A stretch of 64,000 nt of DNA, taken from NCBI GenBank assembly GCA_963666975.2, contig CAXVYR010000002.1, positions 320,001 to 384,000 of the forward strand, given 5' to 3'. Of this stretch, positions 35,456 through 43,846 are shown piece after piece (the stretch's first letter is position 1; each line of letters begins with the position of its first letter). Under the pieces are notes generated by a model. The model worked only from the letters and a program-made list of their open reading frames with translations. It had not been told where the DNA came from and ran no database searches. The stretch is from Terriglobia bacterium (GTDB lineage Bacteria > Acidobacteriota > Terriglobia > 2-12-FULL-54-10). Made by a program: the position numbers and the translations under genes.

Positions 35456-36154
35456 ATGAAGGTCGATAAGGCAGGTTTATTTTGGGGGATGACTTTGGCT
35501 ATTACGCTTGTGGCGTCGCAGATCGCTTGCCAGCAGACAGGCGGCCCGGCCGATGACGCCATGGAGTCCGGAGCATACGCCGGAGATTCTGCCGCTTCGG
35601 CAGGCGGCAGCGAGCGTGCCGCGCCACAGCCCCGCTCGGCAACGCTGGCGGCGGGAACCGCGCTGAGAATCCGCACCACGAGCGAGATCAGCACGGACTC
35701 GAGCCAGTCCGGAGAAAGTTTCACCGCCACGCTCGAAGAACCGCTGGTCGAAGGCACTTGGGTAGTTGCTCCCCAAGGCTCGACGGTGGAGGGACGAATC
35801 GTCGAAGCCGATCAAGGCGGCCGAGTGCAAGGCGTCGCCCGGCTCGCCATCGAGCTCACGCAGTTGCACACGGCGGACGGCCAGACGATCGAAATTTCCT
35901 CGAACACCGTCGCCGTGGAAGCAGATACCACCAAAAAAGATGACGCCACGAAGATCGCCATCGGCAGCGGAATCGGCGCAGCCATTGGAGCCATTGTCGG
36001 CGGAAAAAAGGGCGCGGGAATCGGCGCGGCTACCGGCGCGGGCGCCGGCACGGGCGTTGTTCTGGCCACTCGGGGGGATGCGGCGGTTATCGGCAGTGAG
36101 ACCGTGCTGGACTTCGAGTTGCAGTCTCCGGTCACGATCACAGAAAGCAATTAA
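35456..36154 (+). CDS. Lipoprotein with glycine zipper, function unknown
   Basis: Lipobox-like SQIAC; GSGIGAAIGAIVGGKKGAGIGAATGAGAGTG; RBS ggaggg. Confidence 0.8.
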   Translation: MKVDKAGLFWGMTLAITLVASQIACQQTGGPADDAMESGAYAGDSAASAGGSERAAPQPRSATLAAGTALRIRTTSEISTDSSQSGESFTATLEEPLVEGTWVVAPQGSTVEGRIVEADQGGRVQGVARLAIELTQLHTADGQTIEISSNTVAVEADTTKKDDATKIAIGSGIGAAIGAIVGGKKGAGIGAATGAGAGTGVVLATRGDAAVIGSETVLDFELQSPVTITESN

Positions 36155-36299
36155 GCAGCCTGCCGAATCGATTTCCTTGCCGCCGCATGCTGCGGCAATT
36201 CCTGTCGCGGGTGGATTTGCGAATTCTCCAACACCGGAGCCGATCCTGGAGCCCACACTGGAGAATGACCCACAGCGGAGACGAATCATCACAGACGAC

Positions 36300-37244
36300 A
36301 TGAGCGCCTCTCCCCGCCGGACCGGGAACTCCCGTCTATCGCGAAACGCCCGCAACCGGACCGGCGCTGTCCCGTCAACGGAGCGACCGCATCCATCGAG
36401 CGCAGCGATAGACGCTCAAGACACTACCGGCATCCTCCGCACAATTCAGAAGCAAGACGCCGGAGTCCCTGCCGCAGTCAAACGGCAAATTCCGAACATT
36501 GCCAGAGCCGTAGAGGCGGTTACAAAGGCCCTGCGCATGGGCGGGCGGCTGATCTACGTCGGGGCCGGCACCAGCGGGCGAATCGGCATGATGGACGCGG
36601 CAGAATGTCCTCCCACCTTCGGCACAGACAGCGAGATGGTGCAGGCCGTGATGGCCGGCGGCTCCCGTGCACTGACCCGGGCGCTGGAAGGCTCCGAGGA
36701 TGACCGAACGCAGGGCCGCCGCGACCTGGCCGCCCGAAAGGTTGGCCCTCGCGACGTAGTAGTCGGACTCACCGCCAGCGGCCGAACGCCTTACACGCTT
36801 GCGGCGCTGAGCTACGCCCGTTCGCGGCGGGCTGCAACCGTGGCGGTCACCTGCAACCCCGGCTCGCCCGCCACTCGCGCCGCCCGCATTGCCATTGTCC
36901 CCGCCACAGGCCCGGAGGTAATTGCAGGCTCCACGCGCATGAAGGCTGCGCTGGCACAGAAAATGGTCTTGCACATGATCTCCACCGCCGCCATGGTTCG
37001 TCTGGGCCGTGTTTACCGCAACTACATGGTTGAGGTTCGCCCCACCAATAAAAAACTGCTGGAGAGGGCTCGTTCCATTGTCGGAACTGTGACGGGAGCG
37101 GACCGCCAAACCGCAGCCTCGACGCTGGAGCGCGCCGGGAAAGACGTCAAGCTGGCAATCGTGATGTTGCAGTGCGGCCTCGCCCGCCCGGCAGCAGACA
37201 AGCTGCTGCGCCGCCACCGCCGCGATCTGCGCGCAATCGGCTAG
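36300..37244 (+). CDS. murQ: N-acetylmuramic acid 6-phosphate etherase
   Basis: GGRLIYVGAGTSGRIGMMDAAECPPTFG, GPEVIAGSTRMKA, NYMVEVRPTNKKL; start uncertain. Confidence 0.93.
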   Translation: MSASPRRTGNSRLSRNARNRTGAVPSTERPHPSSAAIDAQDTTGILRTIQKQDAGVPAAVKRQIPNIARAVEAVTKALRMGGRLIYVGAGTSGRIGMMDAAECPPTFGTDSEMVQAVMAGGSRALTRALEGSEDDRTQGRRDLAARKVGPRDVVVGLTASGRTPYTLAALSYARSRRAATVAVTCNPGSPATRAARIAIVPATGPEVIAGSTRMKAALAQKMVLHMISTAAMVRLGRVYRNYMVEVRPTNKKLLERARSIVGTVTGADRQTAASTLERAGKDVKLAIVMLQCGLARPAADKLLRRHRRDLRAIG

Positions 37245-37483
37245 AGCGGTTTACATAATGGTGTAGAGACTCGTATTCGTTGGTTCTGCTGTCAGGGCAC
37301 GGTTTCAACCGTGCCGTCACCCGGATCACGACAGTGCCTTCAGCCGCCGAGGTCGGGGTTGAATCGCTGGAACACACAGCGTTCAAAACTCACCTCAGGC
37401 GTTAAAGCGCACTTGGCTGGAGAGCGTTTCGGCACGGCTGAATCCGTGCCCTGGCGAAATACACAATTCGTAAAAACGGCCTA
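37242..37483. repeat. MITE-like element (IS630-like ends) with REP-like doublet, at the murQ stop codon
   Basis: tagagcggtttacataatggtgtag...tacacaattcgtaaaaacggccta; internal tcagggcacggtttcaaccgtgccg and cggcacggctgaatccgtgccctg. Confidence 0.65.
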
Positions 37484-37506
37484 ACCTCCGTCTCAGTATT
37501 CTGCAT

Positions 37507-38718
37507 ATGACCCTGCTGGCAATCACGGCGAAGAAACTTTTCACCCCCAGGGAAATAATCAAAGAAGGCATGGTGGTGATCGACGAGGGCGTGATCCGCA
37601 GTGTTGGGTCTCGGGAAGAACTGACGGTGCCAGCGGCGGCACGTCTGGTGGACTTGGGCGACCGGATTCTGGCTCCCGGCTTTGTGGACGTTCACATCCA
37701 CGGAGGCGGAGGCCACGACGTGATGGAGGCCACGCGGGAGGCCTTGGAAACCGTCGCCGCTATGGTCTTGCGGCACGGAACTACATGCTTTGTTCCCACC
37801 ACGCTGACGGCGGCTCCGCCGGTCTTGTCGAAATCGCTCGAAGGTCTAGGGTCCCTGATCCGGTCCTGGAAAAATCGGGGAGCCAAAACGCCCGCCCCAG
37901 GCGGCCTACTCGCCGAGCCTGTGGGGATACATCTGGAAGGGCCGTTTCTGAGCGCGGAATGCCGGGGCGCGCACCCACCGGGTGATCTGCAAGCGCCTTC
38001 CTTGCCTTTGTTCCAGCAATTGCAGGAGGCGGCAGGAGGTTGTCTTCGAATCCTCACCTTGGCTCCGGAGCTGGAGGGAGCCACGGAACTCCAAGCGGCT
38101 GCCATCCGCAGCGGAGTCCGAGTAGGATTGGGCCACTCCAATGCGACCTTCCGGCAAACCGAGACTGCGATTGCAGCGGGCGCTTCCCACGCCGTCCATG
38201 TCTTTAACACCATGCGCCGCTTCGAGCACCGCGAGACGGGAATTCTGGGCGCGGTTCTGACCGACGACCGAGTGCAGGCAGAGGTGATCGCGGATGGAGT
38301 GCACGTCTCCGCGCCTGCCCTGCGATTGCTGGTTCGCGCCAAGGGAACCGCCAACATTATGTTGATCACCGACGGCGTCAGCGCTACCGGAATGGGTCCC
38401 GGCCAGTACCGGCTGGGAGAAATGGAAATTCATGTGGAGGACGATCCGCGCACCGGTTTGCCTTCATGCCGCAACACGGAAGGGAGGCTCGCCGGCAGTG
38501 TCCTGACCCAGGATCGCGCCATCCGAAACATGGTCGATTTTACTGACGTGACATTGTGCGAAGCGGTTAGAATGGCCAGTTTGAATCCGGCACGGGTTTT
38601 GGGAATCGAACATCGGAAGGGGTCCCTTCAACCGGGCGCCGACGCCGACATGGTGGTCTTGGAGCCGGGCGGCACCGTTATGGGAGCGATGGCGCGAGGG
38701 ACCGGCAACTTCTTATAG
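37507..38718 (+). CDS. nagA: N-acetylglucosamine-6-phosphate deacetylase
   Basis: [50 protein letters not shown]. Confidence 0.95.
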
Positions 38719-38786
38719 AGAAACTGGCGCTGTTACCGCGAGCAAGGCGGCGGCAAAAAAATCGGCGGAGGTAAACAAGCTCTGAT

Positions 38787-40085
<1,299 letters not shown>

Positions 40086-40149
40086 CACTTGTCCTCATTA
40101 CTGCTGGCGCAAGGAAGAAGGAAGTATGATATCGAGGGTGGGGAGCCGG

Positions 40150-41148
40150 TTATTCAGCCGACCGCGCGTGAATTCTGACTTGAACCAAGGTCGGGGCCAT
40201 CAATACAAGATCTGCAATCGAGGCAAATCCAGCACGGCTGAGAACTCTGTAGATTGTTCTCAGAACTCGAGGAGTGGTAGGAGCATAATTGTCGATCACG
40301 TTGACCGGCGCCACCTCTGAAGCATAGCCATCCTTTTCCAGGAGGAGATTTAAATGCTTTTCTACCTCCCTGGGATCGTTCCAGTCGGCCCGGTACGAAA
40401 TAATGCCGTCCTTTCCAATAATAGAAACAGAATTCGGCCTGGCGCCATAATCTCTATTCATTGTTCCTTCAAGGTCATCAATCAAAATCGTGCGTCCAAC
40501 TGTTTCTAGCCGTTTGAGATCGTTTGCGTTGTTCACTTTCTCTGAAAAACTCTTGTGCGCTGGATAGTTTTCTCCGGGGTGAGCCTCCCGCACATACAAT
40601 ATATAAAAATCAACGCTGCCCCTGTATGTTCTCGCTAATGATTCCATCACGGGAATCATATTGATAAAAGGCGGTCAAGTAACGCTTCCAAATTCAACAA
40701 CAATTGGCCTCTCCTTCCAGAGGTCGGAGAGCCTCACCTCGTCTCCCGCCAAGGAATAGAGCGTCTCATCCAACGCTTCTCCCCCTGGAGTCACGCGCCG
40801 CTCTTCCCCGCTCAGATAGTACGAATAGTGAAATCGAGGGTAGTTGTATACGGAAACCGATTCGTAGGGAAACAGAACACCTGAGGCAACAAACACGGCG
40901 AAAGCTGCAATATACCCAAGAGCAGTAGTCCCGACGCATGTCATTATCCAGCGGACCCAGCTTGCACGTGCCCGGACGATTAGGGAATACGTCGCCGCAA
41001 GCAGCGGGAGCAAAAGTAAATATACAAGGAATGCTTCATTGATGACGAGACGGTCGCTTTGCAGGAGAGACCATCCCACAACAAGCGCCATTGCAAGAGC
41101 AGCGCCCAAGGGGAAAGCCAAATATGGATTGCGCGTGATTCTTTTCAT
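40150..41148 (-). CDS. Membrane-anchored iodothyronine-deiodinase-like selenoprotein (332 aa, Sec at residue 158)
   Basis: The two track ORFs are in the same frame, separated only by TGA (40675-40677) plus PPFIN. Read-through gives VVEFGSVT-U-PPF...FYILYVREAHP, the deiodinase active-site motifs. Three N-terminal hydrophobic helices. Confidence 0.88.
40638..40659 (-). promoter_or_regulatory. Candidate bacterial SECIS hairpin
   Basis: AUGAUUCC-CGUGAU-GGAAUCAU: perfect 8-bp stem starting 15 nt after the UGA, with G at loop position 2. Confidence 0.7.
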
Positions 41149-41302
41149 TGTACTCTCCAGACAAAAGGCTGCATTAATTACACTGCCATATTCCGGCTCG
41201 TGTCAAGAATTTTTCAGCACAGCCAAGCAGGCGGGCAACTCTGCTGACCGGCCACCCTCTTTGGGCAGCGATGCATTTCCCCGGTTTGCCGAACCGCTCC
41301 GG

Positions 41303-42664
41303 TCAATAGAGCAGGTACTCGTTCCGCATCCTCAGGAAGGCGGCGTTCTCCCCCTGCCAGTCCCGGGCGATTCGCCGGGGATCGTCGCCGTTGCGTATCC
41401 GTTCGAGCGTAGATTGATTGCCGAGAGACCGGGCAATGTCCTCCAGACGGAACCGTCCGGGGTAAAGCGCATGGAGAGCCGAGGCGATCTCAATTCCCAT
41501 CGCAACAGGCCGGAGAGCATTGCGGTCCGTAATGAGGATGCGGACACCCTGGCAGGCCTCCCCCGCAAAGACCGAACCGGACGGGGTAAACCGGACGGGA
41601 AGAAAACGCACTCCCGGAAGGCTCCTCCGGTTGAGGTAAGCGGCCAGCTCGGTTGCCTGAAGCTCTGTTGCCTGAATCTTTGTTTCCTGAATCTTTGTTT
41701 CCTGAATCCAGGGCGCTCCGAGCAATTCAAACGGGCTGCCGGTTCCGCGGCCTACCGAGACGTTTGAGAATTCCAGCAAACCCACGCCGGGGTAGAGCGT
41801 CGCCTGGCTCAGGTTGCGAATATTCGGTGAAGGGTTGACCCAGCCCAGGCCGGTGGAGTCGTGCCAGTCGCCGCGATTCCATCCCTTCATGGCGATGACT
41901 TCGAGGTCCGCGCCGAGCTGCTGTTCTTCATTGAACATCCGAGCCATCTCGCCGACGGTCATGCCATGACGAACCGGCATGGAGAAGTAGGCGATAAAAG
42001 AGCGCGCTTCCGGGTCGAGCAGAGGCCCTTCCACCTGAAGGCCGGAGATTGGGTTGGGACGGTCGAGCACCACAAAACGGATTTTCGCGCGGGCTGCTGC
42101 CTCCATCGCGTAACCGAGCGTGGTGATGTAGGTGTAAAAGCGCGCTCCGACATCCTGAATGTCAAAGACCAAGGTATCGATTCCCCGCAACATCTCCGGT
42201 GTCGGACGGCGTGTCTTGCCGTACAGGCTGAAGACAGGGATTCCAGTCCCACTGTCCCGCCCGGAAGGAACGTCGCTCTCCTCGGAACGGGCGGTCAAAC
42301 CGTGTTCGGGGCTGAAGGCGGCCACCAATTCCACGCCAGGAGCGGCAGCGAAAATATCCAAGGACCGCCGCCCCTTGCGGTTGACGCCGGTGGCGTTGGT
42401 AATCAACCCAACGCGGCGGCCGCGCAGGGACCGGAATCGGTTCGCCTCCAGCACGTCAATCCCGGTCAGGACCTCAGCCTGGAGAGAACCCAGCAGTAAA
42501 ACGAAAACCCAGGGCAAAAGGATGGCAGGGAGCCTTGCAGTGCTTCCTCTCGGCCGGAATCGAAAATTCACCCTTCTTTTATTGCTTCTTTGATTGCTTC
42601 TTTTGTTGCTTCTGGGCACGACCGGTTGTAAATTCAGTCGGTGTAGATTGGGTTGAGGTTTCAC
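41303..42664 (-). CDS. namZ: Exo-beta-N-acetylmuramidase (DUF1343)
   Basis: GLITNATG, FSPEHG, SLYG, FDIQDVGARFYTY, VLDRPNP, RHGMTVGE, PSPNI; true start is probably downstream of 42664. Confidence 0.9.
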   Translation of the reverse strand: MKPQPNLHRLNLQPVVPRSNKRSNQRSNKRRVNFRFRPRGSTARLPAILLPWVFVLLLGSLQAEVLTGIDVLEANRFRSLRGRRVGLITNATGVNRKGRRSLDIFAAAPGVELVAAFSPEHGLTARSEESDVPSGRDSGTGIPVFSLYGKTRRPTPEMLRGIDTLVFDIQDVGARFYTYITTLGYAMEAAARAKIRFVVLDRPNPISGLQVEGPLLDPEARSFIAYFSMPVRHGMTVGEMARMFNEEQQLGADLEVIAMKGWNRGDWHDSTGLGWVNPSPNIRNLSQATLYPGVGLLEFSNVSVGRGTGSPFELLGAPWIQETKIQETKIQATELQATELAAYLNRRSLPGVRFLPVRFTPSGSVFAGEACQGVRILITDRNALRPVAMGIEIASALHALYPGRFRLEDIARSLGNQSTLERIRNGDDPRRIARDWQGENAAFLRMRNEYLLY

Positions 42665-42700
42665 AACTTTTTATTTTGGCCTAAATTCTGCGGGCAGGCT

Positions 42701-43846
42701 ATGCAAGATTTTGATCTCCCGGCACAAGACCCGGCACTTAAAAAGTTCAGCAAGGCCCTGGAAATTCTGAACACCGCCGTCCGGCAGCATGCATTCCCCG
42801 GCGCCGTGCTGGCCGCAGGTCACGAGGGCAGACTCGCCATCCTGTCCGCAGGAAGGCTGGACTACTCGAAAGAGTCCCCGCCGGCGACGGCTGAAACGAT
42901 TTACGACCTGGCTTCCCTGACAAAGCCGGTGGCTACAGCGACGGCCGCCATGATTTTGGCTGACCGGGGAATGCTGCGTCTGGATCGCCCTGTCGCCGAT
43001 TACCTTCCGGACTTTCTGCAGCCCTTTGTCACCAGCGTAGACCCTTTATACGACGCCCGGAACGAGGTAACCGTGCGGCATCTGCTGGCCCACACCTCCG
43101 GGCTGCCTGCCTATGAAAAGTTCTTTGTGAGGGCGCGGGAGAAGTCCCACGTTCTGGAAGAAGCGCTGGCATTGCCGCTGGAGGAAACTCCCGGAAGGAA
43201 AACTATATACAGTGATCCGGGCTTCATTTTGCTGGGGGAGATTGTGGAGCGCGCTTCCGGCGAGCGGCTGGACGCGTGGTGCAAAAAAGAGATTTTCGAG
43301 CCGCTCCGTATGCAGGACACTTGCTTCAACCCTGCTCAGGACAGGTGGCAGCAAATTGCGCCCACGGAGTTGGACGAGAGTTTCCGGAACCGCCTGATCC
43401 GCGGCGAAGTCCAGGATGAAAACGCATGGGTCATGGGCGGGGTGGCGGGACACGCCGGACTGTTCGGCACCGCCGGGGACATGGCATCCTTCTGCCGGAT
43501 GATGCTGCAAGAAGGAAAACCAGACGGCTCCCAGTTGGTGCAACCCACGACGATCCGGGAATTCACTCAGGCCGGCCATGTTGCGGAAGGAGCATTGCAA
43601 GAAGCATCAGGCCGGGGCCTGGGATGGGACAAACCGAGCGAGCCATCCTCCAGTGGCCGCTACTTTTCTCGCCGCTCGTACGGGCATCTCGGCTTCACGG
43701 GCACGTCGCTTTGGATTGACCCGCAGAAGGCCCTTTTCGTGATCCTGCTGACCAACCGGATTCACCCCAGCCGCTCGAACGAAGCGATCCGGCAGGTCCG
43801 CCCAGCCGTGCACGATGCTGTGGTGGAAGCCCTGGAATCCGGCTAA
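42701..43846 (+). CDS. Serine hydrolase, beta-lactamase class C-like (AmiE/EstB type)
   Basis: YDLASLTK (SxxK), LLAHTSGL, YSDPGF, GVAGHAGLF, GHLGFTGTSLWIDP. Confidence 0.9.
   Translation: MQDFDLPAQDPALKKFSKALEILNTAVRQHAFPGAVLAAGHEGRLAILSAGRLDYSKESPPATAETIYDLASLTKPVATATAAMILADRGMLRLDRPVADYLPDFLQPFVTSVDPLYDARNEVTVRHLLAHTSGLPAYEKFFVRAREKSHVLEEALALPLEETPGRKTIYSDPGFILLGEIVERASGERLDAWCKKEIFEPLRMQDTCFNPAQDRWQQIAPTELDESFRNRLIRGEVQDENAWVMGGVAGHAGLFGTAGDMASFCRMMLQEGKPDGSQLVQPTTIREFTQAGHVAEGALQEASGRGLGWDKPSEPSSSGRYFSRRSYGHLGFTGTSLWIDPQKALFVILLTNRIHPSRSNEAIRQVRPAVHDAVVEALESG

Follow-up and report, generated by a model that had tools for sequence, protein, structure and literature searches.

Bacterial selenoproteins that resemble the vertebrate iodothyronine deiodinases (Dio) were first reported in 2005 from Sargasso Sea data. 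Four selenocysteine (Sec) sequences were described, together with Cys homologues and bacterial selenocysteine insertion sequence (SECIS) elements, and a redox role was suggested by the authors, Zhang, Fomenko and Gladyshev (PMC1088965). In the Global Ocean Sampling (GOS) study, 22 deiodinase-like sequences with Sec and 21 with Cys are listed (PMC2398784). The available text of two reviews, of 2022 and 2026, includes the family, with UxxC as its motif and no function (PMC9312934, PMC13188914). The gene described here lies at positions 41148..40150 of a 64,000-nt stretch of a Terriglobia bacterium genome (assembly GCA_963666975.2, contig CAXVYR010000002.1, positions 320,001 to 384,000), termed the window below. 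It is very probably a single selenoprotein gene of the deiodinase family (PF00837), in which UGA codon 158 is decoded through a SECIS element by the organism's own Sec system.

An initial annotation of this DNA had presented the locus as a hidden selenoprotein. Its novelty was overstated, as deiodinase-like selenoproteins of bacteria have been in print since the 2005 paper. What differs from the published description is the three-helix membrane anchor, the motif UPPF without a resolving Cys, and the position of the gene in a low-GC single-gene insertion of ~1.2 kb. The locus holds a genuine selenoprotein gene that was split in error. Its family is known, the architectural variant is undescribed, and the gene was apparently acquired recently. 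Its interest is moderate, and specialists on selenoproteins would not be surprised by it. The literature, supplements and subscription journals excepted, gave no description of a UPPF form with three helices, and nothing was found there that joins deiodinase, Acidobacteria and selenocysteine. Literature matches for bacterial deiodinase homologs were unrelated, as judged by titles and abstracts.

Two open reading frames share one frame and are separated by a single TGA (Table 1). Translation of the TGA as U yields one 332-aa protein, in which FGSVT-U-PPF (U at residue 158) is followed by LYVREAHPG at residues 183–191; the ORF list and this translation agree with what the initial annotation had read at the locus. 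Alignments with full-length Cys orthologues span residues 1–329 of the query. The protein database holds N-terminal halves that end in ...FGSIT and C-terminal halves that start with MESLA..., and these are Sec orthologues split by gene callers, as had been claimed for the window gene. Promoter and terminator scans of 39950..41450 gave site numbers no higher than in shuffled sequences.

The residue-158 position pairs with Cys. Seven full-length homologues (44%–51% identity) have Cys in this column, and a wider homologue alignment shows Cys in 18 of 19 sequences, which is the Cys/UGA pairing that the initial annotation had proposed as a check. Orthologue loci were fetched with patterns from an alignment of eight full-length sequences. 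Genome and metagenome contig scans gave 27 rows of the same architecture, a count in which the window gene is included, as are three fragments at contig ends (L137–L139) with the N-terminal region partly or wholly missing; a further locus, L122, is outside this pattern-based count. Codon 158 is TGA in six of these rows and TGC or TGT in the other 21. The five TGA orthologues other than the window gene have 51%–56% protein identity to the window protein, and the six Sec orthologues cluster together (support 100/99). Among all fetched loci, 135 of 155 distinct deiodinase-family genes have the TGA, a share that is biased because the patterns came from the query's clade.

A sequencing or assembly error is another conceivable source of the TGA, but nothing was found in its favour. 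Contigs assembled independently from four runs of four studies show no differences from the window over 40562..41250, which includes the TGA and the hairpin described below, although these contigs may derive from one strain or source. TGA, and not TGC or TGT, is therefore what was read in all four studies, and an error at this codon is extremely improbable.

Two other features of the run contigs should be mentioned. At position 40394 the window has T, and C is read in the contigs of X5 and X7, two of the four runs. On the coding strand this changes Tyr252 (TAC) to Cys (TGC), in the strand just before a conserved RADW, and would give a second Cys to a domain otherwise without one. At 40559–40591 the assembly graph of all four runs breaks to a separate 33-nt piece with a depth of 11–31, compared with 8–11 in its flanks. 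This piece codes for the most conserved motif, VREAHPGENYPA, so that other related genes in the samples probably share the exact words.

The genome (four contigs, 98.9% complete) has the Sec machinery that the initial annotation had suggested looking for. Profile searches gave selA at 563 bits, selB at 372 bits and selD at 349 bits, and tRNA-Sec with anticodon TCA was found at 72.8 bits, all above cut-offs. The selD gene (L010, on contig 4) has its own in-frame TGA (AAG-U-ASK) at locus position 1528, followed 13 nt later by the hairpin GUCCAAA-GGU-UUUGGAC, which has 7 bp and a GGU loop. This shows that Sec decoding is in use in this organism, with a signal of like layout.

The hairpin after UGA-158, at 40659..40638, has the sequence ATGATTCC / loop CGTGAT / GGAATCAT; its 8-bp stem, its GU-containing loop and its start 15 nt past the UGA were exactly as first noted. 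A hairpin is present in all six Sec orthologues at 15–17 nt 3′ of the TGA and follows the pattern xxGxUUCC-CGUGAU-GGAAxCxx. Across the six, 91.7% of the stem cells pair, with both-side (compensatory) changes at two pairs. The codons CCC-GTG-ATG-GAA are the same in all six, and identical codons are found at 3 of 4 conserved degenerate sites in the hairpin versus 9 of 77 elsewhere (Fisher p = 0.009). The 21 Cys orthologues have other amino acids at the homologous site and the hairpin is absent. In the fetched loci as a whole, the best hairpins have a median energy of −10.6 kcal/mol in Sec genes versus −2.1 in Cys genes. The soluble UPPF and UPYC groups among them have a hairpin that begins 9–10 nt after the UGA with a 3-nt loop, and so differ from the 15–17 nt and CGUGAU of the present clade.

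Several observations weigh against the reading of this hairpin as a SECIS. Taken alone it is unremarkable: against shuffles the 71-nt fold reaches a z-score of only −0.5, and of the 1713 TGA trinucleotides in the window 159 (~9%) have, within the same range, a hairpin at least as good; for 57 of the 1713 the hairpin position is also comparable and the loop has a G. The covariation rests on six Sec orthologues, and 23 of 500 shuffles reach the observed score. For the selenoprotein reading as a whole it may be added that none of the sequencing runs listed as containing the stretch is of RNA. An Rfam scan of 40100..41300 (E ≤ 1) gave no match; no general bacterial SECIS model is known in that library. 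What does exceed chance is that the hairpin is kept in the Sec orthologues yet missing from the Cys orthologues.

The same data bear on the possibility that the locus is a pseudogene, in which a Cys codon mutated to TGA and the two open reading frames are remnants or separate genes. A single base change converts TGC or TGT to TGA, a recent low-GC insertion such as the one described below might be decaying, and the hairpin by itself is not improbable. However, neither half is damaged and conservation extends along the whole of each, the TGA codon is shared by five other orthologues of one clade that have only 51%–56% identity, the hairpin and the synonymous-site conservation are confined to the TGA forms, and the genome has a complete Sec system. 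A split at this codon would moreover cut through the thioredoxin fold after strand 1, ahead of helix 1. The pseudogene explanation is for these reasons highly improbable. Because the machinery, the Sec/Cys pairing, the conserved signal and the run contigs agree, UGA-158 as either a pseudogene mutation or a sequencing error is very unlikely, and the claim of a hidden selenoprotein is borne out. The unity of the gene, the pairing, the conserved SECIS and the Sec machinery are shown by these data, and the family membership, fold and insertion by those that follow.

The Pfam T4_deiodinase model (PF00837) matches residues 112–253 with 62.2 bits, against a cut-off of 27. A six-frame search of the organism's own genome with this model finds one gene only, at 56.5 bits and with one TGA within the match. 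AhpC/TSA (PF00578) reaches 22.5 bits, below its cut-off of 26; the Redoxin and Thioredoxin models are also below cut-offs. NCBIfam NF038285 (deiodinase_rel) gives 73.3 bits versus a cut-off of 250, with profile positions 181–325 of 347 matched. A sequence search of the PDB yields only mouse Dio3 (4tr3, E = 1.6e-12) and Dio2 (9h48, E = 2.9e-11).

The predicted structure agrees with this. An AlphaFold model made with a 20-sequence alignment (pLDDT 89.3, pTM 0.84) displays a thioredoxin-type alpha/beta domain at about residues 120–271. The top two Foldseek matches are Dio2 (E = 1e-10) and Dio3 (E = 2.5e-10), and VIA-align gives Z = 19.3 for Dio2 9h48 and 18.5 for Dio3 4tr3, with the next match at 15.7. 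These next matches are oxidoreductases of the DsbE, ResA, CcmG and Etrx types (Z 14–15.7) and peroxiredoxins (about 14–15). Structural matches in the PDB cover only residues 113–275. With Dio2 and Dio3 as the nearest solved structures, the assignment as a deiodinase homologue is well founded.

Similarity to vertebrate Dio2 and Dio3 amounts to 28% identity over 157–161 aligned residues, and includes the FGSxT-U-PPF motif, with its Sec where helix 1 begins, the Tyr/Glu/His/His relay, the catalytic Sec and an N-terminal membrane anchor. The catalytic Sec170 and six hydrogen-bond/proton-relay residues have been described for deiodinases, in the available text of PMC11592359. Alignment with Dio3 shows these conserved as U158 (U170), S155 (S167), T157 (T169), Y185 (Y197), E188 (E200), H190 (H202) and H198 (H219). 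(Dio3 numbers except 170, 202 and 207 were derived by chain offset, and Sec170 is Cys in the crystal construct.) Both accessory cysteines of Dio3 are absent, the proximal C168 being V156 here and the distal C239 being R219, and W207 is replaced by Y195. Loop-D has a 9-residue gap relative to Dio3, between GENY and PAH. The full loop-D with Trp207 and the proximal and distal Cys, which characterize Dio1–3, are thus not found in the window protein. All 20 aligned sequences have Arg at position 187, whereas the deiodinases have Glu or Asp there. Other differences are in the architecture: Dio2 and Dio3 have one anchor helix and the window protein has three, with an extra C-terminal helical pair, and a location outside the cytoplasm is predicted for its catalytic domain. 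The eukaryotic SECIS lies in the 3′-UTR and that of the window gene within the open reading frame.

The published bacterial deiodinase-like selenoproteins share membership in PF00837 with the window protein. The features given for them in the available text of PMC1088965, alignment of UGA with Cys and a SECIS-like hairpin after the UGA with a G in a small loop, are found here, as is the Sec-decoding machinery in the genome. The motif differs, as the reviews cited above give UxxC and the window protein has UPPF. Among the Sec genes of the fetched loci, UPPF occurs in 49 and UPYC in 72, so that UxxC describes only part of the family. In six loci from other bacteria (L047, L140, L148, L154, L185 and L192) two deiodinase-like selenoprotein genes are present per fetched locus, a UPPF(V) gene and a UPYC gene, both with a TGA and a hairpin of their own.

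A search of a representative protein library gave 1783 matches at E ≤ 0.001, of which 558 have E ≤ 1e-10. Among the best 150 representatives, the majority are about 230 aa long, lack the N-terminal helices and match residues about 100–327. The C-terminal helices therefore are a family feature and not peculiar to this gene. Coverage of the N-terminal region from the first residues on is seen in ten of the best 150, and in this sense the multi-helix architecture, which the initial annotation considered unusual, is a minority form. The N-terminal region has no Pfam match at E ≤ 1.

Hydropathy and the AlphaFold model both confirm the three hydrophobic N-terminal helices and the membrane anchoring that the initial annotation had claimed (Kyte-Doolittle peaks of 1.95–2.32). 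The C-terminal extension that it also mentioned corresponds to the modelled helices at residues 293–306 and 308–331; the second of these has a Kyte-Doolittle peak of 1.57, just under the usual threshold. According to the positive-inside rule, loops rich in Lys and Arg remain in the cytoplasm. Over 24 orthologues the mean numbers of K+R and D+E are 2.0 and 0.3 at the N-terminus, 0.5 and 1.2 in the loop between helices 1 and 2, 3.2 and 0.25 in the loop between helices 2 and 3, and 1.0 and 2.75 after the third helix. On these charges, the N-terminus is probably cytoplasmic and the catalytic domain probably faces the periplasm or outside, though with appreciable doubt. The charge rule is the sole basis of this topology, and the Arg-rich helix 293–306 and the moderately hydrophobic helix 308–331 could alter the picture.

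Topology, chemistry and reductant are what we infer for this protein. UGA-158 is very probably decoded by the organism's SelA, SelB, SelD and tRNA-Sec, with the hairpin 15 nt 3′ as the signal. In the proposed mechanism, the U158 selenolate would sit in the conserved deiodinase hydrogen-bond network (S155, T157, Y185, E188, H190 and H198) and may attack an electrophilic oxygen or halogen of a membrane-proximal substrate, which would form Se-OH or Se-X. An external thiol reductant would have to regenerate the selenolate, as a second Cys is missing from the catalytic domain: apart from position 158, where C stands in for U, the read-through protein has Cys only at 71, in the third transmembrane helix.

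As to the chemistry, the favoured though uncertain guess is the reduction of hydroperoxides, possibly lipid hydroperoxides, in a “1-Sec peroxiredoxin-like” cycle. The 1-Cys and Bcp-type peroxiredoxins (AhpE, Bcp1/Bcp4) share with the window protein the fold with an N-terminal beta module (Z about 14–15) and a lone redox-active chalcogen for which the chain has no resolving residue. They differ in the PF00578 score and in the motif: Thr directly precedes Sec here, and the peroxiredoxin motif is PxxxTxxC.

Reductive dehalogenation, with halogenated phenolics as substrate, is the main rival and the reading that the initial annotation preferred; it is possible but doubtful. In this deiodinase-like chemistry the selenolate would take X+ from the halogenated phenolic, the Glu-His-His relay would protonate the ring, and thiols would reduce Se-X. 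Consistent with it are the retention of all six relay residues described in PMC11592359 together with the S-x-T-U motif, and the structural proximity of Dio2 and Dio3, about 3 Z units above the thiol-disulfide oxidoreductases and peroxiredoxins. The biased sample of 135 Sec genes in 155 also suits a chemistry in which Se far outperforms S; for a Dio Cys mutant, an activity loss of about 1000-fold is cited in the available text of PMC11592359. Other observations point away from dehalogenation. The loop-D that recognises thyronines is shortened and Trp207 is Tyr, no dehalogenation-related neighbours are found in the window or around 18 orthologues, and a general redox role was expected in the 2005 paper, as far as its available text goes (PMC1088965). 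The relay residues, moreover, would suit a peroxidase equally well.

A protein-thiol partner is an unlikely substrate. Such a protein would be an extracytoplasmic thiol/selenol-disulfide exchange protein similar to ResA, CcmG (DsbE) or TlpA, which forms a selenylsulfide with a partner protein and turns over no small molecule. This would agree with the place of the membrane-anchored DsbE, ResA, CcmG and Etrx-type oxidoreductases directly after Dio2 and Dio3 in the structural search, with the N-terminal anchor and core fold in common with them, and with the catalytic domain predicted to be outside; one orthologue (L040) adjoins a DsbH-like thioredoxin protein. These oxidoreductases have CxxC, however, and the window protein has neither CxxC nor UxxC, but a lone Sec in UPPF without a partner Cys, and the deiodinase-specific relay residues. 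The Thioredoxin and Redoxin models stay under their cut-offs, as given above, and no cytochrome-maturation or DsbD/CcdA neighbour is present in the window or the 18 orthologue loci.

Some points weigh against any of these proposals for the selenoenzyme, the peroxidase guess included. Nothing in the present evidence separates peroxidase from dehalogenase chemistry, the AhpC/TSA score being below its cut-off, an extracytoplasmic one-Sec enzyme would have no obvious reductant, and among 70 flanking ORFs of the 18 orthologue loci there is no recurrent partner gene. The neighbours that were seen are MsrA, beside two near-identical loci, and a DsbH-like protein, a GST and MerR/MerC, once each.

The gene is the only one in a low-GC insertion between murA and namZ. 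The GC content of the insertion is 47%–51%, compared with 58%–65% in the flanks (gene 49.5%, window 58.0%). In two genomes of the same genus, G002 and G001, murA and namZ are separated by 49 and 40 nt and the gene is absent; their murA and namZ have 91%–92% and 79%–83% identity to the window flanks. No convincing terminal direct or inverted repeats were found at the insertion ends. A search of 60 relatives with this query gave no orthologue of the same architecture; the weaker matches number 14, of which 12 are further deiodinase-like genes that contain an in-frame TGA. G002 has two such genes (L028 and L035), with 30%–34% identity to the window protein. We read the gene as a recent single-gene horizontal acquisition, on the basis of composition and the same-genus comparison. 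The alternative, that it was deleted in both same-genus relatives, would also account for its absence there and is less likely because of the low-GC composition.

Table 1. Features of the selenoprotein gene and its surroundings in the window.
Feature	Position	Strand	Remarks
Selenoprotein gene, 332 aa	41148..40150	minus	ATG 41148..41146, stop 40152..40150; one open frame if TGA = U
ORF, N-terminal half, 157 aa	41148..40675	minus	ends ...PIVVEFGSVT
ORF, C-terminal half, 169 aa	40659..40150	minus	begins MIPVMESL; shares frame with first ORF
UGA codon 158 (Sec)	40677..40675	minus	column Cys in 18/19 homologues; TGA in 5 other full-length orthologues
SECIS-like hairpin, 8-bp stem, CGUGAU loop	40659..40638	minus	begins 15 nt 3′ of UGA; kept in 6/6 Sec orthologues
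Shine-Dalgarno-like GGAGAG	41153..41158	minus	GGAG core ends 6 nt 5′ of ATG; read from sequence only
Three N-terminal transmembrane helices (residues 8–27, 35–58, 64–92)	40873..41127	minus	AlphaFold, hydropathy, charge pattern
Deiodinase-type thioredoxin/peroxiredoxin-like catalytic domain (residues about 113–275)	40324..40812	minus	PF00837, Dio2/Dio3 matches
C-terminal helical pair (residues 293–306 and 308–331)	40156..40272	minus	AlphaFold; family-invariant R305, G307, D313
Low-GC insertion, ~1.2 kb, this gene only, between murA and namZ	40090..41270 (approximate)		GC, same-genus comparison
SIS/MurQ-like protein	35766–37244
NagA-like amidohydrolase	37507–38718
MurA	38787–40085
Exo-muramidase NamZ	41303–42664	minus
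Beta-lactamase-fold protein	42653–43846

The region 35766–43846 around the insertion looks like a peptidoglycan-recycling cluster (Table 1). As the gene arrived by insertion, these neighbours would be incidental to its function. Within the NamZ open reading frame there are short tandem peptide repeats, KIQETKIQETKIQATELQATEL, at about 41640–41730, and tandem peptide repeats, SNKRSNQRSNKRR, near the N-terminus of the protein.

The bacterial deiodinase homologues have been known as sequences since 2005, with no assigned function in the literature searched, and this gene offers a testable handle on them. Its genome is nearly complete and has a full Sec system, its SECIS is well defined, and its Cys orthologues can be easily expressed. 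Its architecture may point to a substrate on the outward side of the membrane. The in-frame TGA in most of the fetched family genes means that gene callers split the whole family, and the insertion shows that a selenoprotein gene can travel as a single-gene cassette with the recoding signal inside its open reading frame. The most far-reaching possibility, an improbable one at present, is that the protein is a horizontally mobile, membrane-anchored and periplasm-facing selenoenzyme that would strip natural halogenated phenolics of their halogens by reduction, at the surface of soil Acidobacteriota cells, the ancestral deiodinase reaction. If true, this would give the bacterial deiodinase homologues their first function and would show that deiodinase chemistry is older than thyroid hormones.

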